Below, one piece after another: positions 7,532 to 64,000 of a stretch of 64,000 bases of DNA; the first letter of the stretch is position 1, and each line of letters starts with the position of its first letter. A program made the translations under genes and the position numbers. A model generated the notes under the pieces. That model did not search any database. It was not told the origin of the DNA and saw only the letters and a list, made by a program, of their open reading frames with translations. Origin of the DNA: an uncultured Thermodesulfobacteriota bacterium (GTDB lineage: Bacteria > Desulfobacterota > WTBG01 > CAIYCZ01 > CAIRTM01); the NCBI GenBank assembly GCA_964566035.1, contig CAZMHH010000003.1:5220-69219 (forward strand), in the 5' to 3' direction.

Positions 7532-7566
7532 TGTTTTCGCTTATGGGTAAAAAGGTGATTAATAGC

Positions 7567-40585: not shown

Positions 40586-40597
40586 TTTTTTTCTCCG

Positions 40598-42939: not shown

Positions 42940-43241
42940 AGATTTTTAAAAATAGTTCTTTATTTTTTAGAGTGTTATGTTATGCTTAAAGATAGTGGTT
43001 AAACAAAAGCAAAACCTGAAAAATTATAGCAATCAGGAAAAACAGCCCTGCGCTGAAAAATAAAAATTCTGTGATTGGTTAATCTCTAAAAACTATCATT
43101 AACGGTCAACAAAAGCAAGAAGTGTTGTTTAAAAAACAGGGTTATTTTTTTACAGGCAACGATCTGTTCCTTTTTTTTAACAATGACAGCAAGAAATTTA
43201 AATCCTGAAAAACTTATATATATTTTTACCCGGAGGAAAAC

Positions 43242-44678: not shown

Positions 44679-44828
44679 TAGAGCTGTAAGGTTGTTGGCT
44701 GATAGGCCGTTAAGCAGAAATCAATACCGATTAATAGGTGGGCGCAGGAGAATTAACGGGTTTTACCTATTAACCCATCTATAAGAGTTTGAGCTTTGTG
44801 GCTTCATTTATGTTTCCGAGAGTTTTTT

Positions 44829-45437: not shown

Positions 45438-45596
45438 ACCATGAAATTTGAATTTTAAATTCACAAGTATTTTGTCAATTACAAGCCTGTGACGAACATA
45501 TCGATAACAAGAACGAAATGTGCTTTTCCTGATTCCTGACAGTTTTGTTTTTCCCTGCCTCCCACAGAATTGTTTTTAAGACAGGAATAGTAAAAA

Positions 45597-48002: not shown

Positions 48003-48022
48003 ACAGATAATATGGGGGAGTT

Positions 48023-48895
48023 ATGGAACTAAGCAGAGAGGAAGCAGTAAAATTTTTTAACAACCTGGATGAGCTGATAAATAATCTAAAAAAAGATATT
48101 GAAAAAACAGATGATTTGTCTGTTGAAGCATTTCCTACAAACAATCTTTTCAGGGCATTTCATTCAATAAAAGTTAATGCAAACATTCTTGGATATGAAC
48201 AGCTATCCAATGTTTGCCAGCTGGCGGGAGATGTTATTTTAAAGATACGTATAGGAAGTCTTAAATTTGATGACAATGTGCGAGAAATTCTGATTAAAAC
48301 AACAGAGCTTCTTTCTACTGTTTCAGAAAACCTGAAAAATGACGGCTGTGAACAAATACTTGAACAGAGCAGCATTCCAGCTTTAATAAGGGATCTTACC
48401 CAACAGGTCCCATCTTCGTCTGGTATTGCAGCTTCAGACCAGTCAAGAACAGGTATCCATGTTGTTTATAAGGATGACAGAAAAAAGCCCGAAAAACTCA
48501 AAAGCCTTGTTGTTGAAGATGAATTTGTTTCAAGGAACATGCTTCTTGATTTTCTCTCGGATTATGGCCAGTGTGATGTGGCGATTAATGGTTCTGAAGC
48601 AGTTGCTGCTTTTAAGGAAGCGCTTAAAAAGAGGGAAAACTCATATAACCTTATTTGTATGGACATAATGATGCCTGAAACAGACGGGATGGAAGCTGCA
48701 AGGATGATAAGACAGCTTGAGGCTGAGAACGGTGTTCCTGCATATGCTGAGGTAAATATTATTATGATTACAGCTCTTGGAGATCCCAAAACAGTAATAA
48801 ATTCATACTATAACTGCGGAGCCACATCGTATCTTGTTAAACCAATAAATTTGAAAAGATTAAAAGTGGAACTGGAAAAGCTGGGGATAATATAG
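48023..48895 (+). CDS. Hpt (CheA-P1-like)-REC fusion protein
   Basis: N-terminal LFRAFHSIK helix bundle; C-terminal REC LVVEDE/CMDIMMP/TA/YLVKPI. GGGGAG RBS. Confidence 0.8.
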   Translation: MELSREEAVKFFNNLDELINNLKKDIEKTDDLSVEAFPTNNLFRAFHSIKVNANILGYEQLSNVCQLAGDVILKIRIGSLKFDDNVREILIKTTELLSTVSENLKNDGCEQILEQSSIPALIRDLTQQVPSSSGIAASDQSRTGIHVVYKDDRKKPEKLKSLVVEDEFVSRNMLLDFLSDYGQCDVAINGSEAVAAFKEALKKRENSYNLICMDIMMPETDGMEAARMIRQLEAENGVPAYAEVNIIMITALGDPKTVINSYYNCGATSYLVKPINLKRLKVELEKLGII

Positions 48896-49073
48896 TTGTT
48901 GAGCTGTCAGGTAAGGACTGTAAAGGGGATGAAAAAAACAATCTTTCACATCGAGTTCAGTTTGTTCTCAATCCCTACAGCTGCAAAACTTAACTGCTTA
49001 CTCTGTGTTCCCCGTCCCGGGTTTTAGTTTTGTCCTGTAAATTGTTTTCTGCCGCTTATAACCCATTAGCGCT

Positions 49074-49586
49074 TTATCCATCATGTCTGTCGACAAGATT
49101 TTTCTGCCATCTGAAGAAAACCTCACCTGTGTGTGTTAAAAAATACAGTTTGCAGCCGCTGTTTCCTCCATAGTTATGGGCGACAAGATGAAGCTTCTCT
49201 GACTCAATGGTTTTTAATGCAATATCAATATTCATCATCCCTATTTTTTTTTTGGCATTTATTGCTGAAAACATATCAGCACCTCCAAAAAGCTTAACAT
49301 CAATATCTTTGCTTTTTACGTTCTTTTTATCAAATTCTTCAATCATTGCAAGAATAGATGTATCAACATATTTGTATGCCTCGGTTCTGTTTAAGCTTTG
49401 CACTACCTCTGCAGGTGCTTTTGGAAGAGCGGCATGGTTCATTGCCGCCAGACCTTTTTTCATGCAGAACATTGTAACAGAGATACATGAACCAAGGACA
49501 GTGCTTAGTATCATTGGTTGATTCGTGAAAAAGATTTCGCCGGATTTTAAAAAATGAACCGGCAGATTTTTTAATGACTGTTTCAT
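49074..49586 (-). CDS. cheD: Chemoreceptor glutamine deamidase CheD
   Basis: LKSGE, TVLGSCISV, NHAALP, YVD, KLFGGADM, IG.MN. Confidence 0.9.
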   Translation of the reverse strand: MKQSLKNLPVHFLKSGEIFFTNQPMILSTVLGSCISVTMFCMKKGLAAMNHAALPKAPAEVVQSLNRTEAYKYVDTSILAMIEEFDKKNVKSKDIDVKLFGGADMFSAINAKKKIGMMNIDIALKTIESEKLHLVAHNYGGNSGCKLYFLTHTGEVFFRWQKNLVDRHDG

Positions 49587-49750
49587 TTTTTGATATTGAT
49601 CTGTAAAAAATTTTAAAATACTGTAAACTTACCTTTGCAGCCCTGAATTGTATTAACAGATTGTATATCTGTTTTTTTTTAACTCTTGAATTAAATAAAT
49701 AATGCAGCAGAACTAAAAAAGCAAGCAAGAAATTGTCATAAAAAGTATTA

Positions 49751-49779
49751 TTGACATTTACAGAACGCTGTTCTATATT
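49751..49779 (+). promoter_or_regulatory. sigma70 promoter with an overlapping palindromic TetR-type operator (49759-49777)
   Basis: TTGACA-N17-TATATT. The spacer contains the near-perfect inverted repeat TACAGAAC-GCT-GTTCTATA. Confidence 0.7.
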
Positions 49780-49829
49780 AAAACAATGTTTCTTCTTTAG
49801 AGATTAATCCTGCAGTGAGAGGAATTTTT

Positions 49830-50471
49830 ATGACAGATTTAAAGGAAGCTATTGAAGCAAGAAACAGGGCAGAGAAAGAAGAAAGGATAAAAAAAATTCT
49901 CAGCTCCGGCAAAAAACTATTTCTTAAAAAAGGATATGCAAACACAACAATGAGGGATATCTGCAGGGAGGCTGTTCTGTCAACAGGGGCTGTATATTTC
50001 TACTTTAAAAGTAAGGAAGAGATATATGCACGTGTTTGTGAAGAATCTTTCCTCTTTCTCCTTGAAATGTTTGAGAAATCAGTTGACAGAGAAGATTCAG
50101 CAATAAGAAGGCTTCAGAATGCAAGGAATGCTTATCTTGATTTCTATAAAAAGCATAATGATCAGTGGATTATGCTTAGCAACGGTTTCAGAAATGCCAT
50201 TACATCCCCTGAACTTCTTAACAAACTTGAAAACATAGATTCCAGGATTCTCTCCTTTTTTCAGGAGATGGTTTCACAATTTCTAAAAGAACACGGTCTT
50301 GAAGAAGAATATGACCACACTGAGGTTACTTTTGCTCTCTGGGCGGGGGTTGAGGGCCTGCTTATTATACACAACCATAAATACCTTGAAATTAAAGGTC
50401 TGAATCTTGAAAGAATGGTCGATAAACAGTTTAGAATCTTTTTAAAAGGTCTTCTGGGAAAAGAGGTTTGA
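49830..50471 (+). CDS. TetR/AcrR family transcriptional regulator
   Basis: HTH IL.S...LF.KKGY.NTTMRDI.REA.LS.GAVYFYFKSKEEIY. ATG 49830 with AGAGGA RBS. Confidence 0.93.
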   Translation: MTDLKEAIEARNRAEKEERIKKILSSGKKLFLKKGYANTTMRDICREAVLSTGAVYFYFKSKEEIYARVCEESFLFLLEMFEKSVDREDSAIRRLQNARNAYLDFYKKHNDQWIMLSNGFRNAITSPELLNKLENIDSRILSFFQEMVSQFLKEHGLEEEYDHTEVTFALWAGVEGLLIIHNHKYLEIKGLNLERMVDKQFRIFLKGLLGKEV

Positions 50472-50473
50472 AT

Positions 50474-51610
50474 ATGGCAGGAAAAGAGTTTAAATCGGAT
50501 TTTTTGCTTTTAAGGGTTTTTATTATTTTATGTTTATTGCCCGCAGCTGCTTTTTCGTGTGCTTCCAACACCGAGGAAGAATCTGCAATTAGGCAGGAGA
50601 AAAGGCTTGTTAAGCTTATTGAAGTTTCCGGATTTTCTCCAACAAAGACAAGAGCATTTCCGGCAATTGCCAAGGCAACAAGAGAGGTTCAACTTGCTTT
50701 TCGTGTAAGGGGTCCTCTGGTGAACTTTCCGGTCAATGTTGGCGACTATGTTGAAAAGGGACAGCTTATAGCTCAGATAGACAGAAGGGATTACAAAGTC
50801 AGGTTAAAATCAGCAAAAGCAGCGCTTGAGACCTGTCGGGCGGAAATGGAGGTTGCAAGACTTCAATACGATAGACACAAAAATCTGCTAAAAACAGAGG
50901 CTGTTGCAAAAGCACGGTATGACAGGGTAAAAGCTGATTTCGAGATGATAACAGCCAAAGCAGATGCTGCACTACAGGAGTTCAGGGCGGCGCAGGATGC
51001 ATTAAGGGACACACGGCTTGAGGCCCCGTTTTCAGGGTTTGTGAATACTAAATTTGTTGAAAATCACGATAATGTTCAGGCAATGCAGCCAATTGTATTA
51101 TTTCTTGACTGTTCTGCAATTGAGGTTGTCGCAGGTCTTCCTGAGGAGATGCTTGTAAAAAGTGTTAAATTGAAGGGTTTTGAATGCGGATTTGAAACAT
51201 ACCCAGGCATCAGGTTCAAAGCGGACTTGAAGGAGCTTGGTACAAAACCTCTGATTTCAAATCAGAGCTATCCATTAACGGTTATATTGAGCATGGAAGA
51301 TTCGGCTAAAGTCAAACCCGGAATGGCAGCGACTGTTTTTGTAACGTTTTTTTCAGAGAATGACCATCCGTTTTACGTTCCTGTAGAGGCTGTTGTGTCT
51401 GATATTGAAGAAAAAAGCTATCTCTGGATATATAACCCTGAAAGCAGCACAGTAAACAGAAGATATGTTGAAACAGGAAGTATTACTTCTTCAGGCATTG
51501 AGGTCAAAAACAATCTCAAGAAAGGCGAGTGGGTTGTAAGGGCTGGAGCTCACTTCCTTAAAGAGGATGAACAGGTAAAACCAGTGTTCCCGGGACAAGA
51601 GATGTTTTAG
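50474..51610 (+). CDS. RND efflux periplasmic adaptor (MFP)
   Basis: LAFRVRGPL...V.VGD.V.KGQLIAQID lipoyl half, LEAPFSG, KPGM, GL-type C-terminal EWVV.AG. Confidence 0.9.
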   Translation: MAGKEFKSDFLLLRVFIILCLLPAAAFSCASNTEEESAIRQEKRLVKLIEVSGFSPTKTRAFPAIAKATREVQLAFRVRGPLVNFPVNVGDYVEKGQLIAQIDRRDYKVRLKSAKAALETCRAEMEVARLQYDRHKNLLKTEAVAKARYDRVKADFEMITAKADAALQEFRAAQDALRDTRLEAPFSGFVNTKFVENHDNVQAMQPIVLFLDCSAIEVVAGLPEEMLVKSVKLKGFECGFETYPGIRFKADLKELGTKPLISNQSYPLTVILSMEDSAKVKPGMAATVFVTFFSENDHPFYVPVEAVVSDIEEKSYLWIYNPESSTVNRRYVETGSITSSGIEVKNNLKKGEWVVRAGAHFLKEDEQVKPVFPGQEMF

Positions 51611-51788
51611 CCCGTTTTATCAAAAAACCTCTAAAACATTGTCGTGTTTAGTCCGGACTGTAGGATATTGAATCTATTGGAAATGCTTCAGACAATGGAA
51701 TGGATGTTATAGGAAAAATCCGGTAAAAAGCGTTATATCTCCAAATTATAAAAGAAAAAAACGAATATTTATTGAAAAAGATTATTAA

Positions 51789-54700
51789 ATGAACTTTCCT
51801 GAATACGCAGTTAAATATACCCCGCTTGTGCTTTTTGCTCTTGTTCTTTTAGTTTTAAGTGGCCTTTACTCATACAACAGGCTGGGCAAACTTGAAGACC
51901 CTGAGTTTACAATCAAGATAGCCACAGTTGTAACATACTACCCCGGAGCCTCAGCTGTTGAGGTTGAACAGCAGGTAACAGATGAGATAGAAAAGGCTGT
52001 TCAGAGACTGGAAGGCATTGATAAAATACGCTCTGTCTCAAAAGCAGGTGTATCAATTGTATATGTTTATATTCTTGAATCATTTCGTCCCAAACAAATT
52101 CCGCAAAAATGGGATATCCTCAGACGCAAGGTGATTGAAGCAGAAAAAGAGCTTCCGCCTGGAGCTTATAAACCAATGGTTTTTGATGACTATGGAGACG
52201 TGTTCGGTGTTTTTTTAGCTCTTACCGGTGATGGATACTCCTATGCCGAGATGAAAAAATATGCCCTTTTTATTCAAAGAGAGCTTCTTCTGGTTGAAGA
52301 TGTGAACAGGGTTGAAATATGGGGCACACGTACTGAATGCATATATGTTGAGATATCAAGGTCCCGTCTTTCTGAAATTGGCATACACCCACAGCAGATT
52401 ATAGATACGCTTCAAAAACAGAATTTAATTGTTGATTCAGGCAGGGTTGATGCAGGTACAGAAAGGATACGTCTCGAACCATCAGGCACTTTCTCAAGTG
52501 TTGAAGAGGTTGAAGGGCTTGTCATAAGAGGTGCGGAAAAACAGGAACTTGTGCTGATGAAGGATGTGGCAAATATAAAAAAGAGCTATGTTGATCCTCC
52601 GCAAAACATGATGCAGTTCAATGGAAAACCGGCTATAGGGATAGCCATTTCAACAGTATCACGTGGAAATGTTGTAAACATGGGACAGGCTGTAAAGAAA
52701 AGGCTTGAAGAGCTTATGCATCAACTTCCCGCAGGTATTGAAGGCGGTGTGGTTTCGTATCAGGCGGAAGATGTTCTGGAGGCTATAAACAGTTTTATTT
52801 TAAATCTTATCATGGCTGTGGCAATTGTTACAGCCATACTGCTTGTTACCATGGGTATCAGAAGCGGACTTCTGATAAGCAGTGCCCTTATATTTACCAT
52901 ACTCGGAACTTTTGTTGTCATGCTTCCTTTGGGCATTGATCTGCAAAGGGCGTCTCTTGGTGCACTTATAATAGCCCTCGGGATGCTTGTTGACAATGCA
53001 ATAGTGGTAACAGAAGGCTCGCTTGTAAGCCTTCAGAAGGGGGATAACAGACTTGCCGCAATGACTCAGCCAGCAAAAAAAACTGCATGGCCCCTTTTAG
53101 GTGCAACAATTATTGCGATTGCAGGTTTTCTGCCAATTGCCCTTGCACGCAACAACACTGGCGAATACTGTTTAAGCCTGTTCCAGGTTGTGGCTATTTC
53201 GCTTGCCATAAGCTGGATTATTGCAATGACTGTAACACCGGTGCTCAGCAGCCTGTTTCTTCGCATTTCTGCAAATAAACAGGGAACAGACCCTTATGCA
53301 AGCCCGTTTTACAGAAACTACAAATTCGTTCTTAAAAAGGCGCTTATTTACAGAAAAGCAACGATTCTGATGATGTTCTTCCTTCTTGTAACGGGTTTAT
53401 ATGCGTTTTCTTATGTCCAGCAAATCTTCTTTCCTGATTCCGACAAAAAAATGTTCATAATAGAATACTGGCTTCCGGAAGGGTCAAATATATATAATGT
53501 TTCTGAAGATGTTGCGGAAATTGAGCAGCATCTTATAGACAAATATCCTGAAATAGTTTCAGTTGCATCATGTATAGGGGAAGGAGCCCCACGATTTAAT
53601 TTAAGCTTTGAACCCGAAATCCCAAATTCAAGCTTTGGACAGCTTATAGTAAATGTTAAAAAGCTTGATGACATTGAAGCCTTGCTTCCTGATATTCAGG
53701 ATTATCTCAAAAATAATTTTCCGCAGGCAGAACCAAGGCTCAGAAGATTTCCGCTTGGTCCTTTCACCCCGTTTAAAATTGAAGCCCGCATAAGCGGACC
53801 TGATCCAGCTGTTCTTAGGCGGCTCTCCAAACAGGCTCAGGATATAATGAGTTCAGACAGGCTTAGCAAGGATACACGTGATAACTGGAGACAGAAGACA
53901 AAGTTATGTGCTCCCGATTTTTCACAGCCAAAGGCAAGAAGAGCAAATGTATCACGCCAGGATTTGGCAACATCGCTTTCAATATTCACCGACGGACTTC
54001 CTGTGGCAATTTACAGGGAGGCAGATGAACTGCTTCCCATAATTGTCAGGGCGCCTGATGAAGAAAGGCGGGATGTTGACAACCTTGAGAACCTTCCTGT
54101 ATGGGGATCCTCGTTTAAGAGCGTTCCTCTTAAACAGATTGTTAATGATATAAAAACAGTATGGGAAGACCCGATTATTCAACGCTATAACAGAAGGAGA
54201 ACCATAACCGCTCAGTGCGATCCGATAGAGGGAATAACATCAAATGAGCTGCTTCAAAGAATTAAACCTGCCGTAGAGGCAATTGAGCTGCCTCGCGGAT
54301 ATTATCTGGAATGGGGGGGAGAGTTTGAAGAGGATGAAAAAGCGGGCGAAGCTGTCTATTCTCAGCTGCCGATTGCTTTTTTAGTAATGGCGTTTGCAAT
54401 TGTTGCCCTTTTTAACGGATTCAGACAGCCTCTTATTATTGTTCTGATTCTGCCCCTTTCATTGATTGGTGTCTCAGCGGGACTGCTTACAACAGGACAG
54501 CCGTTTGGTTTCATGGCTCTGCTTGGTGTTTTGAGCCTATTCGGTATGCTCATTAAAAATGCTGTTGTGCTTCTGAAACAGATTGATTCAACAATCGGCG
54601 AAGGAACAAATCCATATCATGCTGTAGTAGACTCCTCAATAAGCCGTATGAGACCTGTTATGATGGCATCTTTTACCACGGTTCTTGGCATGATTCCTCT

Positions 54701-54833
54701 TTTAACAGACAGGCTTTATGCATCAATGGCGGTTGCAATAATGTTTGGTCTGACATTTGCTACTGTTCTGACCCTTATTGTGGTGCCTGTTTTATATACA
54801 ATGTTTTTCAGGATATCTTCTGAGCCCCTGTAA
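51789..54833 (+). CDS. RND efflux permease (AcrB/AcrD/AcrF family)
   Basis: LGKLEDPEFTI, ALGMLVDNAIVV, GMLIKNAVVL, RMRPVMMASFTTVLGMIPL; about 12 TM. Confidence 0.95.
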   Translation: MNFPEYAVKYTPLVLFALVLLVLSGLYSYNRLGKLEDPEFTIKIATVVTYYPGASAVEVEQQVTDEIEKAVQRLEGIDKIRSVSKAGVSIVYVYILESFRPKQIPQKWDILRRKVIEAEKELPPGAYKPMVFDDYGDVFGVFLALTGDGYSYAEMKKYALFIQRELLLVEDVNRVEIWGTRTECIYVEISRSRLSEIGIHPQQIIDTLQKQNLIVDSGRVDAGTERIRLEPSGTFSSVEEVEGLVIRGAEKQELVLMKDVANIKKSYVDPPQNMMQFNGKPAIGIAISTVSRGNVVNMGQAVKKRLEELMHQLPAGIEGGVVSYQAEDVLEAINSFILNLIMAVAIVTAILLVTMGIRSGLLISSALIFTILGTFVVMLPLGIDLQRASLGALIIALGMLVDNAIVVTEGSLVSLQKGDNRLAAMTQPAKKTAWPLLGATIIAIAGFLPIALARNNTGEYCLSLFQVVAISLAISWIIAMTVTPVLSSLFLRISANKQGTDPYASPFYRNYKFVLKKALIYRKATILMMFFLLVTGLYAFSYVQQIFFPDSDKKMFIIEYWLPEGSNIYNVSEDVAEIEQHLIDKYPEIVSVASCIGEGAPRFNLSFEPEIPNSSFGQLIVNVKKLDDIEALLPDIQDYLKNNFPQAEPRLRRFPLGPFTPFKIEARISGPDPAVLRRLSKQAQDIMSSDRLSKDTRDNWRQKTKLCAPDFSQPKARRANVSRQDLATSLSIFTDGLPVAIYREADELLPIIVRAPDEERRDVDNLENLPVWGSSFKSVPLKQIVNDIKTVWEDPIIQRYNRRRTITAQCDPIEGITSNELLQRIKPAVEAIELPRGYYLEWGGEFEEDEKAGEAVYSQLPIAFLVMAFAIVALFNGFRQPLIIVLILPLSLIGVSAGLLTTGQPFGFMALLGVLSLFGMLIKNAVVLLKQIDSTIGEGTNPYHAVVDSSISRMRPVMMASFTTVLGMIPLLTDRLYASMAVAIMFGLTFATVLTLIVVPVLYTMFFRISSEPL

Positions 54834-54920
54834 CTTTTTATATTGACAAACCATGTAAAATAATTAAAAAGTATAATGAAGGTATAAAATATTAATATTA
54901 TCAGAAAAAGGGGGGCTTTT

Positions 54921-55178
54921 ATGATAGTCGAATGTCCGAAATGCGGAAGTCCGGTAAGTGATCAGGTTTGTGAGAGTTTCTTTTATGGTGAAAACACAAA
55001 TCCATTTTGTGAATACTGCAAATGCAGCCTGAAAGAACATCTCATTTCCATGAAAGATGAGCAGAAATGGGAGGAACGTTTCAGCGGGCTTAATCATTCC
55101 GAGGAGAAGTTTACTAAAAAAGTTAAAGATGGAATTGGAAAAAAAGTTGACGAGACCAAAGAATTTTTCTGGGGATAG
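54921..55178 (+). CDS. Small hypothetical zinc-ribbon protein
   Basis: GGGGG RBS, CPKC...CEYC pairs, charged helical tail; fills an otherwise empty gap. Confidence 0.55.
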   Translation: MIVECPKCGSPVSDQVCESFFYGENTNPFCEYCKCSLKEHLISMKDEQKWEERFSGLNHSEEKFTKKVKDGIGKKVDETKEFFWG

Positions 55179-55896
55179 TATTGATAAAACAGCAAATCAG
55201 TCGCGAAAACTGGTTAATTTTTTTAATTTGATCGCTCCCAGATATGACATGATGAATACCCTGCTCAGTTTCGGGCTCCATTTTTTATGGAGAAGAGAAA
55301 CGATAAAACAGGCTGAAATAAAAAAAGAGAGTATGGTTCTTGACCTTTGTGGAGGAACAGGGGATTTGAGCATCCTTGCAGCAGAAAGTTATTCAGAAAA
55401 CAGTCTGCTTATTTATGATTTCAGTCCCGGAATGATAGCAAGAGGAATGGAGAAGATAAAAAAAAGGGGGCTTTCAGATAAAATTAATTTTATCTGCGGA
55501 GATGTTGAAGACATTGCCGCACAGGATAAAACTTTTGATATTGTCATTACAGGGTTTGGGCTGCGCAATATTGTTGACAGAGAAAAAGTCCTGGCAGAAT
55601 CTTTCAGAGTCTTAAAACAGGGAGGAAGTTTTATCTGTCTTGAATTCTCAACCCCGATGTTTCCCCCGTTTGTTTTCCTTTATAATTTATACTCCAGATA
55701 TGCAATACCATTTTTGGGAAGCGTTGTGGCCGGTTCAAGAAAATCCTACCGTTATCTTGTTGACTCCATAAATGCTTTTCCACCCCCTGAGGAGATTGTA
55801 TCTCTTTTTGAAGAGGCAGGTTTTGAGCAGGTAAGCTTCAAGAGACTGTGTCTGGGAGTAGCAGCGATACATAAGGGGTTTAAGCCGGAGAAATAG
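55129..55896 (+). CDS. ubiE: UbiE/MenG quinone biosynthesis C-methyltransferase
   Basis: IAPRYDMMNTLLSFG.H..WR, VLDLCGGTGD, GFGLRN, RVLKQGG...CLEFS, Y.YL.DSI..FP. Start uncertain; ATG 55129 is the nearest. Confidence 0.88.
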   Translation: MELEKKLTRPKNFSGDSIDKTANQSRKLVNFFNLIAPRYDMMNTLLSFGLHFLWRRETIKQAEIKKESMVLDLCGGTGDLSILAAESYSENSLLIYDFSPGMIARGMEKIKKRGLSDKINFICGDVEDIAAQDKTFDIVITGFGLRNIVDREKVLAESFRVLKQGGSFICLEFSTPMFPPFVFLYNLYSRYAIPFLGSVVAGSRKSYRYLVDSINAFPPPEEIVSLFEEAGFEQVSFKRLCLGVAAIHKGFKPEK

Positions 55897-55954: not shown

Positions 55955-56644
55955 TTATAAATCAGAGGCAGCACTGCCTGACTTATGTCTTATTATTTCA
56001 CCTGTTACAGTATAGATAACCTGTTTTGCCATATTTTTGATATTATCTCCCATACGTTCAATAATAAAGCAGAGAGAATATATATGCAGCAGTGATTCCA
56101 TCTGCCAGGGATCTTGCGGAAGACTGTTCTCAATCTTTTCATTAATCATTTTTATTATTGTTTTTTTAAGTTCGTTTATCTCTCTGTCCGCCCCCCATAC
56201 CTGTCTTGCAAGTTCCTCATCAAGATTCAATACACAGTCAACGGACATTTGAAGCATTTTTTTTGCCTTTTGAGCCATTATCCGAAGTTCATCAACTAAA
56301 CAAACAGAGCTTATCGCAGACAGTTCAATAGCCCTTTCGGCAATGTGCACTGCTTTATCGCCCACCCTTTCAAGCTCATGGTTGATTTTCAAAAGAGTAT
56401 ATATATGCCTTAAATCCTTTCCAACAGGCTGCTGAAGAGCAAGAACCTTTAGCACATCATCCTCTATTTCCACTTCAAGTTCATCAATTATTCTATCATC
56501 CTGAATAACCCTTTGGGCTTTTTCAATATCACTGTCAAAAAGGGCATTGATGCTGTTTTCGAACTCCTGATCAACAAGCAGAAAGAGCCTCTTGAGCTTT
56601 TCTTTAATCTTTTTCAAATCTCTTTCAAAGTGTAAAAGAGCCAT
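55955..56644 (-). CDS. phoU: Phosphate signalling protein PhoU
   Basis: D..IDELE..IE...L..LALQQPV..DLR, ELERVGD.A..IA, ERMGD...N.A. Confidence 0.93.
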   Translation of the reverse strand: MALLHFERDLKKIKEKLKRLFLLVDQEFENSINALFDSDIEKAQRVIQDDRIIDELEVEIEDDVLKVLALQQPVGKDLRHIYTLLKINHELERVGDKAVHIAERAIELSAISSVCLVDELRIMAQKAKKMLQMSVDCVLNLDEELARQVWGADREINELKKTIIKMINEKIENSLPQDPWQMESLLHIYSLCFIIERMGDNIKNMAKQVIYTVTGEIIRHKSGSAASDL

Positions 56645-56789
56645 TATTTAATCCTCTGAATAAATGCTGATATATTGATAAATGACTTATCTCTATATAT
56701 AGCACTTATTTAATCAATTTTCAAAACAATATAACTTTCGAATTGACTCAAAATAAATATTACGAAAAGGCTCTGCTGAAAAGTTGGAG

Positions 56790-56816
56790 TTAACAGTTAA
56801 TTAACGTAAAACTAAC
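56790..56816. promoter_or_regulatory. Putative Pho-box array 1 (three 11-bp-spaced direct repeats)
   Basis: TTAAC at 56790, TTAAC at 56801, CTAAC at 56812, in the phoU/TonB-operon divergent intergenic region. Confidence 0.6.
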
Positions 56817-56900
56817 AAAAGCCGCATCAGTAAAAACGCAACCATTTGACAAAACTTGCGGTTTAATAAAAACACCTGCTACCGATTCACAAAAATACAA

Positions 56901-56939
56901 TTAACAGTATCTTAACTGTAGCTTTATTGAGTATTAACA
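56901..56939. promoter_or_regulatory. Putative Pho-box array 2
   Basis: TTAACA at 56901, TTAACT at 56912, degenerate TTTATT at 56923, TTAACA at 56934; all in an 11-bp register. Confidence 0.6.
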
Positions 56940-56993
56940 CCACGTAGTTAAATTTAAATTCAGAAACTGATAATCAACCAAAGAGGAAAATAA

Positions 56994-57749
56994 ATGCTTA
57001 AAGCAAAACAGTTGTGTCTGCCCTTGTTTATCTCAATTTTTTTTTCATTGCCTGTTAGTGCATATCAGAAAGAAGAGGTGGAGGATACCATCGAAAAAAG
57101 CATAGAGATAAGAGAGCAGACCCAGAATAAAAGCGCACAGTGGCAAAGCAGAAAAGAGAAACTCAAAAGCAGATACTATCAGCTTAAGGATTCCTTTGAT
57201 GCAATTGACGTTGAAGTTAGCCACATGCAGGAAATTGTTGACAGACAAAACGTCTATATAGCCCGTATGGAGAATAGAATTATTGAGATGGAGAAAATAC
57301 GTCAGCACCTGGTTCCTTTTCTTGAAGAGATACTGGACAGTATGCAGGAGACTGTGGATAACGATCTGCCGTTTCTTGTTCAGGAACGTGCCACACGGAT
57401 TAGCGCCCTCAGACAGGTCATACATGATCCGGAGCTGAGCATGGGTGAAAAACTCAGACGGGTATTCGAAAGTCTCAGGGTTGAGATGGATTACGGAAAA
57501 TCTGTTGAAACGACAAAAGAGGAGATCAGTTTCGATGGCGAAGAAATTATTGTAAAGGTATTAAGGCTTGGACGTACAGCTCTGTTGATGCTGACACTTG
57601 ATGATAGCAAAGCTGGAATTTTCTCTCAGGGCCGGTGGATTAGCCTTCCCGGCAAATACCGGGGGGAAATAAAAAAAGCCATCGAGATAACTGAAAGAAG
57701 AAGACCTATTGAATTTGTTAATCTTCCCGTTACAGGAGTGACTAAGTGA
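56994..57749 (+). CDS. DUF3450-family (TtpB-like) periplasmic coiled-coil protein
   Basis: Signal peptide, coiled coil, DLPFL..ER..RI, EKLRRVFE..RVE.DYG, LRLGRTAL. Confidence 0.82.
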   Translation: MLKAKQLCLPLFISIFFSLPVSAYQKEEVEDTIEKSIEIREQTQNKSAQWQSRKEKLKSRYYQLKDSFDAIDVEVSHMQEIVDRQNVYIARMENRIIEMEKIRQHLVPFLEEILDSMQETVDNDLPFLVQERATRISALRQVIHDPELSMGEKLRRVFESLRVEMDYGKSVETTKEEISFDGEEIIVKVLRLGRTALLMLTLDDSKAGIFSQGRWISLPGKYRGEIKKAIEITERRRPIEFVNLPVTGVTK

Positions 57750-59161
57750 AAAAAGTTTTTTTTAGCGGCCTTGCCCTATTTCTACTATTAAGTCAACCTT
57801 TTCTAATTTCTGCTGAAGATGTTCAACAGGATTTAAAATCAACATTAATAGAAAAAGCAAAAAGAAAAGCCTCGGAGGATGAGTCAAAGGCACGCAGAGA
57901 GGCAATAAAGCGGGAGGCTGAGATTCTTTTTGAGAGCGGAGAGCTTGAGAAAAGACTCTCGGAAATTGAGCAGGCATCAAAGAAAAAACAGAAAATGCTG
58001 TCATCTCTCAACAAACGCTATATGGAGAATGACAAAGAGATAGAGAGGCTTCAGAAAAAGATCGAGGATCAGGAAGGTGCAATGAATGAGATATCCGGCT
58101 CTGTACGGGGCATAGCACAGGATACTGCTGTATCCCTGAGAAACTCCATTGTTTCGGGTGAAATCCCTAACAGGAATGATCTTATAGAACCCCTGCTTTC
58201 TGAGATTGAATTTCCATCACTTGAAAATATTACTAAAATGGTTGAAGTAATATTCGGCGAAATTCAACAGAACGGCAGGATATCAACAAAGCCTCTGAAA
58301 TATATCGGAGCTGATGGAAGAGAGACAGAAGGTCTGGTTATGAGAATCGGGGCTTTTAATGCGCTTTATTATAAAGATGGCAAGGCAGGTTATCTTGAAT
58401 ATATTCCTGTAAAACAGGCATTCCATCAACTGACCGTTGAACCACCAAAAGAGATGATAAAAGAAGCGACCCGGTTCTTTGAAGAAAAATCTTCTTCATT
58501 TTATCTTGATCTTTCCTCAGGAAGCGCATTCCGCCAGCTCACAGACATGCCGACCTGGTATGAAGGATTAAAAGCCGGAGGTGTTCTTATATATCCATTA
58601 ATATTTATAGGTGCTATTGCCCTGATACTTATATTCGAGCGGATGATAGTGCTTGTAAAAGAGGGTGGAGAAGCGGAGAGATTGTCGACAGAAATAAATC
58701 CAATGCTCAAGAACAGAGAATGGAATAAAGCAGTTGAGAGATGTCAGAAGAGAAAAAGCAGCCTTTCAAAGGTGGTGGAGGAAGGTATTACTCACCGCAG
58801 CGAACGGGTTGAGGTGCTTGAATCGGTGATGCAGGAAGCAATACAGGGAACACTTCCAAGACTTGAGAGAAATATGTCTGCGCTGCAGATACTTGGTATG
58901 GTAGCGCCGCTTATAGGTCTGCTTGGAACTGTAACAGGTATGATATCAACCTTTCAGATGATAACCCTTTACGGCACCGGAGATCCAAAGATTATGTCAG
59001 GAGGTATATCAGAGGCGCTTGTAACAACAGAATATGGGCTGATAGTGGCTATTCCGATAATTCTGATGCACGGTTACCTTAACAGCAGAATAGACAGGAT
59101 CGTGGGAATACTTGAGGAAAGGGCGATAACAATAGTAAATTCAGTTAAAAAAAGCGGATAG
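57746..59161 (+). CDS. Long MotA/TolQ/ExbB protein with large periplasmic N-domain (TtpC-like)
   Basis: Signal peptide, RIGAFNA, AGG.L.YPL, APLIGLLGTVTGMI.TF, GGISEALVTTEYGL.VAIP. Confidence 0.88.
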   Translation: MKKVFFSGLALFLLLSQPFLISAEDVQQDLKSTLIEKAKRKASEDESKARREAIKREAEILFESGELEKRLSEIEQASKKKQKMLSSLNKRYMENDKEIERLQKKIEDQEGAMNEISGSVRGIAQDTAVSLRNSIVSGEIPNRNDLIEPLLSEIEFPSLENITKMVEVIFGEIQQNGRISTKPLKYIGADGRETEGLVMRIGAFNALYYKDGKAGYLEYIPVKQAFHQLTVEPPKEMIKEATRFFEEKSSSFYLDLSSGSAFRQLTDMPTWYEGLKAGGVLIYPLIFIGAIALILIFERMIVLVKEGGEAERLSTEINPMLKNREWNKAVERCQKRKSSLSKVVEEGITHRSERVEVLESVMQEAIQGTLPRLERNMSALQILGMVAPLIGLLGTVTGMISTFQMITLYGTGDPKIMSGGISEALVTTEYGLIVAIPIILMHGYLNSRIDRIVGILEERAITIVNSVKKSG

Positions 59162-59167
59162 TCAAAA

Positions 59168-59767
59168 ATGATCTGGGACATAACAGTATATGAGTATATA
59201 AAGATGGGGGGCTGGGTCATGATGCCTCTTATCGGTCTTGCTTTTGTACTGGGGTGGCTGATCATTGAAAGGTTTCTCTATTTCAAGCAATTACAGAAAG
59301 ATGATATTACAACCGACGAAATAATTCTGTCGGTGCAGGAAAATAAAATAGGTGCTGTAGAGAAAAACGGCATTCACAGAGAGATAATGCAAGGTCTGAT
59401 TGATAAAAAAAGGTGTTACGGCTATCTGGATGCTCTTGTTGTGGAAGAGGTTGAAAAAAAAGTAGTACCCGAGCTTAGCCGAAATATGCGGAGCATTTCA
59501 GCCCTGACTGCTGCAGCCCCGCTCCTTGGGCTTCTCGGAACAGTTTCGGGCATGATAACAACTTTTAATGTAATGAATGTGTTTGGCACCGGAAACGCAA
59601 AAGCAATGTCGGGCGGAATATCCCAGGCGCTTGTAACGACACAGTTCGGCCTGGTTGTAGCAATTATCGGTCTTTATATGGCAATGATACTGAACCAGCA
59701 TGTAAAAAAGTATGAAACCATAGCCAGAGAAGCAACAGTGCATATCATAAGGAAATTTAACCTATGA
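59168..59767 (+). CDS. exbB: ExbB proton channel
   Basis: GGWVM.PL, APLLGLLGTVSGMI.TF, GGISQALVTTQFGL. Confidence 0.9.
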   Translation: MIWDITVYEYIKMGGWVMMPLIGLAFVLGWLIIERFLYFKQLQKDDITTDEIILSVQENKIGAVEKNGIHREIMQGLIDKKRCYGYLDALVVEEVEKKVVPELSRNMRSISALTAAAPLLGLLGTVSGMITTFNVMNVFGTGNAKAMSGGISQALVTTQFGLVVAIIGLYMAMILNQHVKKYETIAREATVHIIRKFNL

Positions 59768-60171
59768 TTCAAATAAAGAGAAGACGCGCTGCAGGCGCAA
59801 TCGAGCTGAATATGGGACCTCTGATGGATCTTGTCTTTCTGCTTCTCATATTCTTTATTGTTACAACAACGTTTGTAAAAGAAACAGGGCTTGAGGTGCA
59901 CCGGCCTTCGGCTAAGACAGCAGCAAAGCAGGACAAGGCTACTGTGCTGATCGGGGTAAGTAAAGAAGGCACAGTCTATATGGAAAACAGAGTTATTGAT
60001 ATCAGGGCAGTGAGGGCAAATGTTGAAAAAGCGCTGGTTGAAAACCCGGAAGCAGGTGTAATTGTTGTTGCGGATAAAGAGAGCTCAACCGGGGTTGTGG
60101 TAAATGTTATTGATCAGTGCAGGCTTGCCGGTGCAAGGGGCGTGTCCATAGCCGCAAAAAGTGAAGAATGA
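59764..60171 (+). CDS. exbD: ExbD
   Basis: NMGPLMDLVFLLLIFFIVTTTF, ADKES..G.VV.VID. Confidence 0.92.
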   Translation: MIQIKRRRAAGAIELNMGPLMDLVFLLLIFFIVTTTFVKETGLEVHRPSAKTAAKQDKATVLIGVSKEGTVYMENRVIDIRAVRANVEKALVENPEAGVIVVADKESSTGVVVNVIDQCRLAGARGVSIAAKSEE

Positions 60172-60806
60172 CTAAGAATAAGCCACGATATGCTTCGTCT
60201 TTTCTGCTGGCAATATTAGTTACAATTTTTCTGATATGCCTGATGCCGCTGCTTCTTCAGTTGGCAAATCCGCCTCAGAAGGATGAGAACAGGGATGCCA
60301 TAGCACTGATTGGCGCTATCAAGCTGAAGGAACCGCCACCAAAAAAGAAAGTTAAAAGAAAAGAGCCAAAACCGCCACCAAAGGTCAACCCGAAGTTAAA
60401 AGAGATCATGCCCAAGTTTGACTCTGCGTCTCTTCTTGATGTCCCTTTTCAGTTTGATATGGGGCTGTCCTCTGATATAGGTGATGAAGATATGTCTCTT
60501 GGGTTTAAAATATGGAATGAGCAGGATGTGGATGTAAAGCCGGTTGCCCTTTTCAGGGCAAAACCTGTATATCCGGCACAGGCAATGGCAAAAAATATTA
60601 CAGGGAAGGTAACCTTTAAACTTCTGGTTGACAAAGATGGAACTGTGAAAGAAGTCAAAATAATTGAGGCAAATCCTCCCGGGGTCTTTGAGGAAGCAAC
60701 AGTTAAGTCTGTCCATCAATGGAGGTTTCAGCCTGCAAAAGTAAAGGGAGAACCGGTCTCGGCATGGTGTCAATCTGCAATCAGTTATGAGCTGGATTAT
60801 GAATGA
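60168..60806 (+). CDS. tonB: Energy transducer TonB
   Basis: N-terminal TM, Pro/Lys-rich linker (EPPPKKK...PKPPPK), C-domain PVYP..A....I.G.V, WRFQPA...G.PV. Confidence 0.9.
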   Translation: MTKNKPRYASSFLLAILVTIFLICLMPLLLQLANPPQKDENRDAIALIGAIKLKEPPPKKKVKRKEPKPPPKVNPKLKEIMPKFDSASLLDVPFQFDMGLSSDIGDEDMSLGFKIWNEQDVDVKPVALFRAKPVYPAQAMAKNITGKVTFKLLVDKDGTVKEVKIIEANPPGVFEEATVKSVHQWRFQPAKVKGEPVSAWCQSAISYELDYE

Positions 60807-60947
60807 ATATAACGGTAGGCAGAAGGGGGAAGGATGAAAAGAGTCACAAGTATCAAACTGAAAGATGCAAGAAGCGGTAGGGGGCAAGTGGTATCACCAG
60901 AACAGCGAAAGAAAAGAAACCCATTCATCAAACAAAGGAGAGTGCTT

Positions 60948-62195
60948 ATGAAACTATATATTTTATTGCTTTTAATTCTTGTTCTTCCCCCCGGTGTACA
61001 CTCAGCAGAGGAGATTGACTGGACAAACATACACGATCATACAAAAAAAACACTGTTTTCAGCCCAGCAGGCAATGAATGAAAACAGGTTTCAGGACGTC
61101 ATTGAAGACTTATTGGCATTTCAAAGCAAAAAACCAAAATTTAATCATTTTCTGATTGAATTTAATATCGGAACAGCTTATGGTTTGTCCGGCAATACGA
61201 ATAAGGCTATAGAGCATCTGGAAAATGCTGTTGTTCTGGAAGATGTTTATCCGCCCCTTTGGCTAAATCTCGGTAAACTCTATTACCAGAACAAAGATTT
61301 TGATAAAGCCGGTCAGGCTCTGGAAAAAGGATTTACAATAAGCAGTGCCAAAAGTCCTGATATTCTCTTCATGGCAATGGCGGCATACTATCAGGCGGAA
61401 AATTTTAAAAAGTCAATTGAACTAGGAAATTCTCTTGTATTTACATTCGGTAAAGAATCTTTTGAGATAGTCAGTCTGCTTGCAAATTCCTACATTGTTT
61501 CGGAAAGTTATGAGGATGCGGTTGATACTCTCAACAGACTCCTTATAAAAAATCCGTCGGATCCTCAGGTCTGGAAACTTCTTACCCAGTCATATTTTAA
61601 AAATCAGCAGTTAAAGGAAGCAGCAATTGCCTATGAAATATACGGGTATATGGACAGTCTTGACAGAGAAGAGCTTATTATAATGGGAGACCTGTTCACA
61701 ATGATTGGTGTTCCGGCAAGAGCTGCTCAATACTATGAAGAAGCTATGAAGGACGAAGCTGCAGCAGATGAGCTTGATAAGTTGTCTGTTGCCTATTATT
61801 CTGCCTACCGGTTTGATGATGCGATTGTAGCCGTTAACAAAGCTCTTAATAAGGGAACAACATCCGATAGACTGCTGCTTAAGGCTCAGCTCTATTATCT
61901 TCAGGACAGATTTAAAGAAGCGGAAGAAACCTACATTGCCGCTGCAGAACATTCCACAAAGGATGGGCATGAATGGCTGATGGCTGGGTATTGTGCAATG
62001 AGAAACGGCGAAATAAAAAAAGCAAGGGAACTTCTGACAAAAGCGTCGCAGCACCCGGAACAACGCAACGATGCGATTGCAATGATTAAGATGCTTGCCC
62101 CTGTAGAAGAACTCAGAGAACTGATGGCTTCAATGAAGGAAGTGGAAAGCTACCTGAACGATGAAAAACAGTATTCATGGGAACAGGTTTTATAA
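60948..62195 (+). CDS. Secreted TPR protein (TtpD-like)
   Basis: Start re-assigned to MKLYILLL at 60948 (AAGGAG RBS, signal peptide); multiple TPR helices. Confidence 0.8.
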   Translation: MKLYILLLLILVLPPGVHSAEEIDWTNIHDHTKKTLFSAQQAMNENRFQDVIEDLLAFQSKKPKFNHFLIEFNIGTAYGLSGNTNKAIEHLENAVVLEDVYPPLWLNLGKLYYQNKDFDKAGQALEKGFTISSAKSPDILFMAMAAYYQAENFKKSIELGNSLVFTFGKESFEIVSLLANSYIVSESYEDAVDTLNRLLIKNPSDPQVWKLLTQSYFKNQQLKEAAIAYEIYGYMDSLDREELIIMGDLFTMIGVPARAAQYYEEAMKDEAAADELDKLSVAYYSAYRFDDAIVAVNKALNKGTTSDRLLLKAQLYYLQDRFKEAEETYIAAAEHSTKDGHEWLMAGYCAMRNGEIKKARELLTKASQHPEQRNDAIAMIKMLAPVEELRELMASMKEVESYLNDEKQYSWEQVL

Positions 62196-62383
62196 AGAGC
62201 TGTTAATCTGATAGCTTATAAGCAAAAAAACAGGTGTTGGCTGTTAGGCATCAACTGCTTATCCTGTTTAATGCGAAACAACCGGAGGTTATTTAAAAAC
62301 TTTCATTATAGTAGTCATTACAGTATTTATATTCTTGAATAGAGTTGGAAAAGAACGTAATTGTGAATTTTAAATTGTTAGCC

Positions 62384-64000
62384 ATGAATGTTATTCGGGT
62401 CAAACTGACCTGCTTATTGATACTTATTTCAGTGGGCATATCACCCAGCCTGGCGCAATCAGAAGAGGAAAAAGCGACCATAACCGGCTGGGTTCTGGAT
62501 AAGGAAACCGGAAAACCCCTGTCAGAGGCAGGTGTGGAGGCATTAAGTAATGTCGGTGATGGCAGCAGTCATTTTGCTCTGACCAATAAGGAGGGATTTT
62601 TTATCCTGGAGATTGTACCGGGGTCGTGGCTGCTCAAGATCACCTATCCCAATTATGAAACAGCCGTGGTTAAAGATATCAAAACAGCAGGTGGTGAAAA
62701 GACAGAGCATAAAATATACCTCACGGCAGGTATGGTTCAGATTGATGAACTGAAGGTTGTTGGAAAACCCAAAGGAGATGTTGAGTTTGTTCAGATTATG
62801 AAACGAAAAATTGCTTCAAACATTGTGGACAACATTTCTGCTCAGGCAATGTCAAGGATTCCGGAGTCTGATGTAGCAGGGATTCTCACACGTATGCCGG
62901 GGGTGGTGATGGATGAGGGTAAATACATGCAGGCTCGCGGGATGCCCAAACGTTATAACAGAAGCACCCTTAACGGCACTAATACACCTACGACAAGACC
63001 AAATGAGAAGGTAACCCCGCTTGACCTTTTTCCTGCAGGCGTTGTTGAGTCTATAAGTGTTGTAAAGACTTTTACGCCAGACCTGCCAGGAAACTTCTCA
63101 GGTGGGCTCTGTCAGATCACTACAAAATCCATACCTGATAAGTTAATGCTGAGCTTCTCAACAAGCACAAAATTCAATGATGCGACCACAAACCAGAAAT
63201 ACCTGACCTACAGAGGCGGGGCACGGGACTGGCTGGGCTATGATGACGGCACAAGGGGGCTACCGGGGATAATACCGGATGAGAAGCTCGTACGGTGGAG
63301 TAAACTCTCAAAGACAGGCTTTGACCCTTATGATATGGAACGGTTTGGGGAGTCATTTAATAATATCTGGAATATAAAAAGGAAAAAAGCCGCTCCTCAG
63401 AACGATTTCAGCTTCTATATCGGTGAGCGGTTCAATAAATTAGGTGCTGTTCTAAGTCTATATCACAAGAGCAATATCCAGAACAAAAAGGATGAAAAGC
63501 AGATAGCCTATACCATGTCAACTGGCAGTGAAAAGGAGCTGATCCCGCTCAACAGTTACCATTTCACCAGCTCAAAACAGAGCCGAGATCTCGGCGGGCT
63601 TTTGAGTTTCGGGCTTGAACTTGATACTGACCATAAGATAGGTATCAGTAATTTTTATAACAGAACCGCCAATGACGAAGCAAGAATCTATCAGGGATAC
63701 AACGATGATCAAAGCACGAACATCAGGGTTACAAGATTGAGATATCAGACCGAGGAACTGCTGTCAAGCACGTTGAGCGGTGATCATAAAATAGAAAGTC
63801 TGCTGGACAGCAGTATTAAATGGCGGTTTAATTATTCCTTTGCAAACCTGGATGATCCGGATATGCGCCAGAGCATTTACATCCAGAATCCCATTACAAG
63901 GCAGTTTACCCTTTCAGATGACACGGAAGCATTGCTGAGAATGTTTACAAAACAGGAGGAAGACAGCAAAGATATGGCATTAGACTGGGGATTGACCCTT
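62384..64000 (+). CDS. TonB-dependent receptor with N-terminal carboxypeptidase-regulatory-like (Ig) domain; 3' end outside the window, absent from the ORF track
   Basis: Translated by hand over roughly the first 250 codons: signal peptide, ITGWVLDKETGKPL, plug SAQAMSRIPESDVAGILTRMPGV...RG...RYN...VTPLDLFP...VVKTFTPDLPGNFSGG. Confidence 0.88.
   Translation, partial: MNVIRVKLTCLLILISVGISPSLAQSEEEKATITGWVLDKETGKPLSEAGVEALSNVGDGSSHFALTNKEGFFILEIVPGSWLLKITYPNYETAVVKDIKTAGGEKTEHKIYLTAGMVQIDELKVVGKPKGDVEFVQIMKRKIASNIVDNISAQAMSRIPESDVAGILTRMPGVVMDEGKYMQARGMPKRYNRSTLNGTNTPTTRPNEKVTPLDLFPAGVVESISVVKTFTPDLPGNFSGGLCQITTKSIPDKLMLSFSTSTKFNDATTNQKYLTYRGGARDWLGYDDGTRGLPGIIPDEKLVRWSKLSKTGFDPYDMERFGESFNNIWNIKRKKAAPQNDFSFYIGERFNKLGAVLSLYHKSNIQNKKDEKQIAYTMSTGSEKELIPLNSYHFTSSKQSRDLGGLLSFGLELDTDHKIGISNFYNRTANDEARIYQGYNDDQSTNIRVTRLRYQTEELLSSTLSGDHKIESLLDSSIKWRFNYSFANLDDPDMRQSIYIQNPITRQFTLSDDTEALLRMFTKQEEDSKDMALDWGLTL

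Follow-up and report, generated by a model that had tools for sequence, protein, structure and literature searches.

Gene Content of the Locus

The 64,000-nucleotide stretch of DNA analyzed here, which we call the window, belongs to contig CAZMHH010000003.1 of an uncultured Thermodesulfobacteriota bacterium. Its last part (55955-64000) holds a gene cluster that encodes a TonB-type motor and a TonB-dependent receptor and that is likely to be a phosphate-controlled system for import across the outer membrane. According to the list of open reading frames (ORFs) and Pfam assignments, there are eight genes, of which phoU lies on the minus strand and the other seven lie on the plus strand. The genes and the promoter features between them are as follows.

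55955..56644, minus strand: phoU, encoding a stand-alone phosphate-signaling protein and pointing away from the TonB operon (two Pfam PhoU domains, 133 bits)
56790..56817, plus strand: distal Pho-box-like array, with TTAACA, TTAACG and CTAACA at 56790, 56801 and 56812, in 11-bp phase
56901..56939, plus strand: proximal four-unit array TTAACA-N5-TTAACT-N5-TTTATT-N5-TTAACA, with units at 56901, 56912, (56923) and 56934
56949..56954, plus strand: -10-like hexamer TAAATT, 9 nt past the last array unit, its position predicted from conserved TAnAnT columns
56994..57749, plus strand: ttpB-like gene for a DUF3450 periplasmic coiled-coil protein of 251 aa with a signal peptide (PF11932, 230 bits against a cut-off of 32.6)
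57746..59161, plus strand: ttpC-like gene for a 471-aa ExbB-type proton-channel protein (MotA_ExbB at residues 338-457)
59168..59767, plus strand: exbB, 199 aa (Pfam MotA_ExbB, 80.8 bits)
59764..60171, plus strand: exbD (Pfam ExbD, 96 bits)
60168..60806, plus strand: tonB (TonB_C, 75.9 bits)
60834..62195, plus strand: ttpD-like gene for a tetratricopeptide repeat (TPR) protein (TPR families in Pfam, and the translation)
62345..64000, plus strand: gene for a TonB-dependent receptor, the first 552 of 944 codons, continuing past the window (Pfam CarboxypepD_reg and Plug; signal peptide)

All gene identities given in a first-pass annotation, which had been made from the DNA letters and their translations, were matched by the Pfam assignments. 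PhoU also scores 171.8 bits with the NCBIfam equivalog TIGR02135, above its cut-off of 130.25, and among the ORFs of the window no pst gene lies upstream of phoU on the same strand. The spacer between phoU and the DUF3450 gene measures 349 bp and has a G+C content of 28%; a ribosome-binding site, AGAGGA, precedes the ATG of the ttpB-like gene. In the ttpC-like protein a periplasmic N-terminal extension of approximately 280 residues is present, and the MotA_ExbB domain is confined to the residues listed above. The ttpD-like TPR protein probably begins with the Met at 60948, where the signal peptide MKLYILLLLILVLPPGVHSA starts; its orthologs in relatives are 406-429 aa long. Genes meet at 4-bp overlaps or at gaps of 6-27 bp, with the sole exception of the 149 bp before the receptor gene. 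Because overlaps of 4 bp or gaps of at most 27 bp join them, the first six genes are likely to form a single transcript.

The receptor probably starts at the Met at 62384. A Logan contig of 7.2 kb carries its frame to residue 895, near window position 65031, and by extrapolation the gene would end near 65179. The full-length receptor (P0002, 944 aa) adds the PF00593 barrel domain. It contains a TonB-box-like DELKVVG, and 24 orthologs hardly vary over I133-V139. Its best NCBIfam model is TonB-Xanth-Caul, at 238.8 bits under a cut-off of 310, and it is not of the SusC type. The protein had been described as a large Ig-domain TonB-dependent receptor; it is such a receptor, and the supposed Ig domain is the beta-sandwich of CarboxypepD_reg.

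A Vibrio-Type Motor without a Recognizable Fur Box

The first six plus-strand genes are the same six, in the same order, as those published for the TonB2 and TonB3 systems of Vibrio, that is, TtpB (DUF3450, ~255 aa), TtpC, ExbB, ExbD, TonB and TtpD (PMC6957404). ORFs and Pfam thus agree with the earlier proposal that the six-gene order matches the TonB2 and TonB3 systems of Vibrionaceae. The DUF3450 TtpB and the long ExbB-like TtpC are common to both. The likeness is one of gene order and protein families. For the TonB C-terminal domain the best entry in the Protein Data Bank (PDB) is TonB2 of Vibrio anguillarum (2K9K, E 1.3e-12), with E. coli TonB close behind (8.6e-11).

In Vibrio the TonB2-type motors are iron-regulated and serve siderophore uptake, whereas the TonB3 operon includes a receptor gene, is free of iron regulation and is without a known cargo (PMC6957404). 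The window differs from both. Where Vibrio TonB2 is under Fur and iron control, the cluster described here has Pho-type arrays instead and lacks a Fur box recognizable by the E. coli consensus; and where the receptor gene comes first in the TonB3 operon, it comes last in the window. In the literature collection searched, we found nothing that links phosphate to Vibrio TonB2 or TonB3, and no paper that names both TtpC and PhoB.

Phased Arrays in the phoU Spacer

The strongest indication of how the cluster may be controlled lies in the spacer upstream of the ttpB-like gene. Exact copies of TTAAC-N6-TTAAC occur just twice in the 64 kb, at 56790 and 56901, compared with 0.14 expected. Likewise, phased arrays of at least three TTAACA-like hexamers number two in the whole window on either strand, and both lie in this spacer. 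When sequences of the spacer's composition were shuffled, at least one array arose in 0.4% of trials and at least two arrays in 0 of 3000. The earlier observation that Pho-box-like arrays precede the cluster is thus confirmed, and the two arrays are unique in the window. The accompanying remark that there is no Fur box was also upheld as far as the E. coli consensus goes, in that the best score in the spacer against the E. coli 19-mer was 12/19, a background level reached at 130 window positions.

At classical PhoB-dependent promoters the Pho box replaces the -35 element and lies ~10 bp upstream of the -10 hexamer. The proximal array in the window is probably a binding site for two dimers of a PhoB/PhoP-type regulator in place of a -35 element. 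The PhoP boxes of Bacillus subtilis have the form TT(A/T/C)ACA, recur in 11-bp phase, are needed in four units and overlap the -35 region, and cyanobacterial Pho boxes are alike. The window array shares with these the repeat unit, the 11-bp period, the number of units and the position at -35. It differs from the Bacillus boxes in that its host is a Gram-negative member of the Thermodesulfobacteriota and in that its third unit is consistently degenerate (TTTAT), and its units remain candidate sites.

Because of the geometry of four units and a -10 hexamer, and because relatives without phoU at this place carry the arrays too, we assign both arrays to the promoter of the TonB operon and not to one shared with phoU.

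Conservation of the Element in Relatives

Loci of relatives were fetched through an alignment of receptor orthologs, from species-representative genomes and metagenomes that did not include the window's own genome, and were annotated locus by locus with ORF lists and family scans (they are designated by L numbers below). The relatives at 48-60% receptor identity are all Thermodesulfobacteriota, "delta proteobacterium" metagenome-assembled genomes (MAGs) or metagenome contigs. The nearest relatives, whose receptors are 48-59% identical to that of the window, are all Thermodesulfobacteriota MAGs, which fits the earlier guess that the host is a deltaproteobacterium. One protein considered as a possible lead to the window's own genome, P0135, was found to belong to a different organism (52% receptor identity).

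A 27-nt element, TTAAC-N6-TTAAC-N6-TTTAT, is found upstream of the orthologous module in 12 relatives, always on the coding strand. These 12 relatives represent 13 loci, with L002/L003 and L004/L009 counted as duplicate fetches of the same contigs. In L002, L004, L007, L008, L011, L013 and L016 a distal array is also present, 80-111 bp upstream of the proximal one. Sixteen promoters, namely that of the window and 15 of relatives including those of pstS and phoB-like genes, align without gaps and share 14 invariant columns (alignment A3). Throughout this alignment there are four units, the third of which is always degenerate (TTTAT), followed by a TAnAnT block ~9 nt past the fourth unit.

The module itself is not always complete. 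The motor is reduced in L011 and L015, and in L002 the module consists of the TPR protein, the receptor and three partner genes only. The space between the arrays is occupied in two loci: in L014 a 63-codon ORF at 4525-4716 that resembles sigma-70 region 4 (EEKTLDEIASILQLRRERVRQLKQKALRRI) lies between the distal and the proximal array, and L006 has an unrelated small ORF in the same place.

The Element Is Shared with Phosphate Genes

Several lines of evidence connect the four-unit array with phosphate. First, it precedes pstS in L007, where PstS, PstC and PstB clear the NCBIfam equivalog cut-offs. Second, in L006 it precedes a Porin_O_P gene, which encodes an OprO/P-family porin selective for phosphate, and also, in the divergent direction, the gene of a PhoB-like regulator. 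Third, it precedes Porin_5 genes in L013 and L032. On this comparative basis the arrays appear to be the Pho boxes of this clade.

In addition, the module is flanked in most relatives by genes for an OmpR-family regulator and a kinase of 576-584 aa with the architecture sCache-HAMP-PAS-HisKA-HATPase. These two genes sit downstream of the module in L004, L005, L007, L013, L025 and L026 and upstream of it in L006 and L032, as well as in L010 according to ORF sizes and synteny; L015 has the regulator only. Among NCBIfam models the regulator scores highest with PhoB (245-252 bits, where the cut-off is 296), ~30 bits above the next family, and the kinase with PnpS, known as the phosphate kinase of pneumococci, and with PhoR. 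The L007 pair has pstSCAB directly after it, and in L016 a PhoU gene is found ~1 kb beyond the module. Had the phoU adjacency been unique to this genome, that would have counted against the first-pass reading; this is so only literally, in that the exact divergent adjacency was seen in the window alone, but other Pho genes adjoin the cluster in relatives. The more general claim, that the cluster is wired to phosphate starvation, gains from the comparison, since the element is kept without phoU and is also present at pstS, porin and PhoB-like promoters, and since a PhoB/PhoR-like pair flanks the cluster. We regard this wiring, as read from sequence, as well supported.

Other genes in these loci may also belong to the regulon. 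In L016 a four-unit array (19256-19368, minus strand) lies directly after phoU and ahead of a gene for an exported protein (MKGKLFLGLIVAVCFVLPA), which is missing from the list of long ORFs, probably owing to frameshifts in a long-read MAG. Two genes upstream of a reduced TonB module, an 808-aa protein without a Pfam family is encoded in L011 (2640-5066, minus strand), L016 (162-2588, minus strand) and L015 (2639-5065, minus strand). Its gene is preceded by a TTAAC-N6-TTAAC array in L011 and L016 and is a possible further member of the Pho regulon. A weak array-like match at 7547-7573 of the window was rejected, as it appears only if a mismatch is allowed and as the gene that follows shows no relation to this 808-aa protein.

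Partner Proteins Encoded Downstream of the Receptor

In every relative with sequence beyond the receptor gene, three proteins of 520-640 aa, ~190-200 aa and ~180-190 aa are encoded, in that order. From the synteny of the relatives we infer that the three genes are probably present in the window's genome too. The first-pass annotation had pointed to phosphatases, nucleases or phytases as genes to look for beyond position 64000. In the loci of relatives none was seen there, and genes for a beta-helix protein, a lipoprotein and a beta-sandwich protein were found instead; none of the three proteins resembles a phosphatase or a nuclease.

Pfam places the large partner in PF28492 (Beta_helix_4), whose thousands of members are spread over many phyla; homologs of the partner include proteins of Hyphomonas, Maricaulis and Bacteroidota. 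The L005 protein was modeled, with 28 homologs, as a right-handed parallel beta-helix with a helical bundle after it (mean pLDDT, the model's per-residue confidence, 86.9). Among solved structures, pectate lyases, alginate lyases and epimerases come closest in fold, at low similarity throughout. Among the 28 homologs an acidic cluster on successive rungs is invariant (D189, D190, E193, D211, D212, D215 and E241 in L005 numbering). The large partner of this clade has no conserved lipobox. A "Cu-binding_MopE" Pfam motif matches the large partners of L005 and L002; it occurs in long variants only and is absent from those of 520-590 aa. The second partner is taken to be a lipoprotein because an invariant cysteine follows a hydrophobic stretch. 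The third is a secreted beta-sandwich protein that resembles pre-peptidase and collagen-binding domains. Searches of the PDB returned no sequence relatives for the beta-helix protein and only remote ones for the receptor.

A further gene was seen downstream of the module in L008 (17075-19432), where a 785-aa protein combines CarboxypepD_reg domains with multiheme cytochrome c motifs.

Phosphate-Induced Receptor and Beta-Helix Pairs

The combination of a receptor with a beta-helix protein is already known to be phosphate-induced (PMC8115612, PMC2996285) and is not a new discovery. In Flavobacterium johnsoniae the TonB-dependent transporter Fjoh_0545 (PF07715, PF13715, PF14905) and the pectin-lyase-fold lipoprotein Fjoh_0546 are encoded in the phoBR operon together with OprP, and under phosphate depletion their induction reaches a log2 of 8-10, or 250- to 1000-fold (PMC8115612). 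Their homologs BT4055 and BT4056 are neighbors in 621 genera, and BT4056 is related to ElpS (bioRxiv 10.1101/2023.03.17.533168). As in the loci studied here, these systems pair a non-SusC transporter of the CarboxypepD_reg and Plug type with an exported partner of the pectin-lyase fold, near phoBR and a porin of the OprP type. They differ in that no dedicated Ton motor has been reported for them and in that the Fjoh_0546/BT4056 partner is itself a lipoprotein, whereas this clade has a beta-helix protein in which no lipobox is conserved, together with a small lipoprotein encoded separately. Fold, membership of PF28492 and synteny suggest that the large partner is homologous to Fjoh_0546 and BT4056.

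ElpS of Caulobacter crescentus (CC0170) is a surface protein induced by phosphate starvation, whose gene adjoins those for receptor CC0171 and for a type II secretion system; proteolysis releases the protein, which has been linked to the activity of alkaline phosphatase (PMC2996285). A phosphate-induced exported protein thus goes together with a TonB-dependent receptor as in our relatives, but with a type II secretion system for a neighbor and not a Ton motor. The same Caulobacter layout, with the protein, the receptor and a type II secretion system, was recovered in the alphaproteobacterium Indioceanicola when plasmid and chromid records were searched by tblastn with the large partner of L005; this search also gave matches in Bacteroides and Parabacteroides records.

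A Ton motor of phosphate starvation has likewise been described, namely exbB2-exbD2-tonB4 of Pseudomonas aeruginosa (PA0693-0695), for which no cargo is known (PMC7035377). It consists of three genes, lacks TtpB, TtpC and TtpD, is controlled by the sigma factor VreI and has another neighborhood. We found no description in the literature of one Pho-box-driven operon that joins the receptor and its partner to the six-part motor, nor of a TTAACA-type Pho box in this Gram-negative clade.

A Proposed Pho-Controlled Import Machine

Taken together, these data make it likely that the cluster is a member of the Pho regulon and encodes a self-contained outer-membrane import machine. We hypothesize that under low phosphate a PhoR-type kinase would phosphorylate a PhoB/PhoP-type regulator, which, as tandem dimers, would bind both TTAACA arrays (56790-56939, 11-bp phase). 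Lying at the -35 position, 9 nt before the -10-like hexamer, the proximal array would recruit RNA polymerase, and one transcript would then cover ttpB, ttpC, exbB, exbD, tonB and ttpD together with the receptor gene. The six inner-membrane and periplasmic proteins would assemble into a Ton motor like those of Vibrio TonB2/TonB3, driven by protons, whose TonB would bind the TonB box of the receptor and open its plug. At the cell surface the beta-helix protein, the lipoprotein and the beta-sandwich protein would probably capture the cargo, most likely a phosphorus-containing compound for which porins would not serve, owing to its size or its scarcity. Once imported, the cargo would give up its phosphate, which PstSCAB would then take up. 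The cargo may be "organic or polymeric phosphorus", as was proposed when the window was first read.

Several observations weigh against this proposal. In none of the relatives examined does a phosphatase, nuclease or phytase gene adjoin the module, and because these genes are absent from it in all of them, no gene names the cargo. The partner genes were seen in relatives only, and the window's own sequence was followed to ~65031; homolog searches with the beta-helix protein of L005 and with the small lipoprotein returned no protein from the window's own contig, and JGI metagenomes gave no exact match to a 60-nt query. The PhoB-like and PhoR-like proteins score under the NCBIfam trusted cut-offs, so that their assignment is by best match and context. 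The sequencing runs that hold the cluster are all DNA metagenomes, and no RNA runs are among them. Finally, the Caulobacter receptor gene cc0171 is reported to be constitutive, unlike elpS (PMC2996285).

Alternative Explanations

Four other explanations can be weighed against the same evidence. The one that survives best, although we think it unlikely, is that the two-component system and the arrays serve as a cluster-specific sensor of the cargo itself, outside the global phosphate response, in the manner of PeuRS for peuA-TonB2 of Vibrio parahaemolyticus. The regulator and the kinase fall short of the PhoB and PhoR equivalog cut-offs, as would suit such a sensor, the extracytoplasmic sCache domain of the kinase could bind a ligand, and a dedicated system beside a TonB2 operon has a precedent (PMC4141801). 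A private sensor is nevertheless at odds with the four-unit array before pstS, the phosphate-selective porin and the Porin_5 genes, with the position of the L007 pair directly before pstSCAB, with phoU as a neighbor in the window and with neighbors annotated as phoB and phoR in Alteromonas (see below). Moreover, PhoB is the top-scoring model by ~30 bits.

A role in export, which we consider improbable, would reverse the direction of transport. Oar of Myxococcus is a TonB-dependent barrel with an N-terminal CarboxypepD_reg domain and a role in outward protein transport. By analogy, the receptor might move the co-encoded beta-helix protein to the surface, for example, to stimulate phosphatase activity as reported for ElpS. 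The receptor does have an Oar-like N-terminal CarboxypepD_reg domain, the beta-helix protein of this clade lacks a conserved lipobox, and in Caulobacter ElpS is reported to reach the surface by a route other than the type II secretion system (PMC2996285). The homologous receptor of Pseudoalteromonas, however, has no such N-terminal domain, published AlphaFold-Multimer models show BT4056 covering its transporter like a lid from the outside (bioRxiv 10.1101/2023.03.17.533168), and uptake is the default function of the receptor family.

Slightly less probable again is uptake of iron or another metal. TonB2-type motors serve siderophore uptake in Vibrio (PMC6957404), and a copper variant of the idea could appeal to the Cys-rich motif of the MopE type in the L005 and L002 partners and to a weak resemblance of the small beta-sandwich protein to the copper-binding protein CorA (4bz4, TMq 0.43). 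Yet no Fur box was recognized by the E. coli consensus, siderophore, heme or metal genes are lacking nearby, and the regulatory context is all phosphate. The MopE motif is missing from the shorter partner variants and the fold matches are weak and those of a generic beta-sandwich. We rejected the copper reading in particular, as the motif spans 30 residues and is absent from many orthologs.

That the phoU adjacency and the arrays arose by chance in front of a constitutive operon is extremely improbable: the AT-rich spacer and the resemblance of TTAACA to a -35 hexamer would favor such an accident, but composition-matched shuffles never produced two arrays, and the comparative data contradict it, because position, phase and unit order of the element are kept across the 12 relatives, at 48-59% receptor identity.

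The Unit outside the Phylum

Pho-controlled import, the reading that we prefer, can also be examined beyond the Thermodesulfobacteriota. A tblastn search with the beta-helix protein of L005 found the whole unit of motor, receptor and partner in two cultured gammaproteobacteria. On chromid pPBSW1 of Pseudoalteromonas sp. Bsw20308 (L051, 3995-14935) the six Ttp genes are followed by a gene for a 931-aa beta-helix protein and then by the receptor gene. This receptor is 27% identical to that of the window over 841 residues and has no N-terminal CarboxypepD_reg domain; the TtpC proteins are 33% identical over 395 aa. Two CTGTCAT half-sites were noted in the upstream spacer of this locus, at 3830-3875.

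In Alteromonas macleodii (NZ_OX359244.1; L054, 2963-19296) genes annotated as phoB, phoR, a phosphate-binding protein and a 2OG-Fe(II) oxygenase come first, followed by the unit in the order 1356-aa beta-helix protein, TonB-dependent receptor, DUF3450, long ExbB, ExbB, ExbD, TonB and TPR protein. This receptor-first order is that published for Vibrio TonB3. Upstream of the beta-helix gene a box TTGTAAC-AAAA-ATGTCAC lies ~11 nt before TACTCT and, by eye only, resembles an enterobacterial Pho box.

These loci allow a wider, tentative conjecture, which we hold to be possible but less likely to be right than wrong. In several phyla, a Ttp-type motor could be the dedicated energizer of a phosphate-starvation receptor and an ElpS-type beta-helix protein; TonB3-type systems could then be phosphorus scavengers, and the acidic cluster of the beta-helix protein could bind an anionic phosphorus polymer through a metal ion. 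Both halves of the unit are long-standing puzzles, as the Vibrio TonB3-type motor and the ElpS/BT4056-type pair are each without a known cargo, and the latter is spread over hundreds of genera and ranks, in Flavobacterium, with the proteins that phosphate starvation induces most strongly. The joined, apparently Pho-controlled unit in anaerobic Thermodesulfobacteriota, and its position beside phoBR in a cultured Alteromonas, provide a testable hypothesis for both halves. If, furthermore, TTAACA repeats are the Pho box of this clade, as in Gram-positive bacteria, the Pho regulon would become predictable in uncultured bacteria of the sulfate-reducer type from sediments and microbialites.

Neighboring Genes

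No other phosphate-related genes were found in 39710-55896 of the window. Just upstream of ubiE and phoU, an efflux operon (49815-54833) encodes a TetR regulator, a membrane-fusion protein and an AcrB-type pump and is unrelated to the TonB cluster. At 45597-49586 lie genes for a hybrid histidine kinase with an Hpt domain, a receiver-domain protein and CheD.

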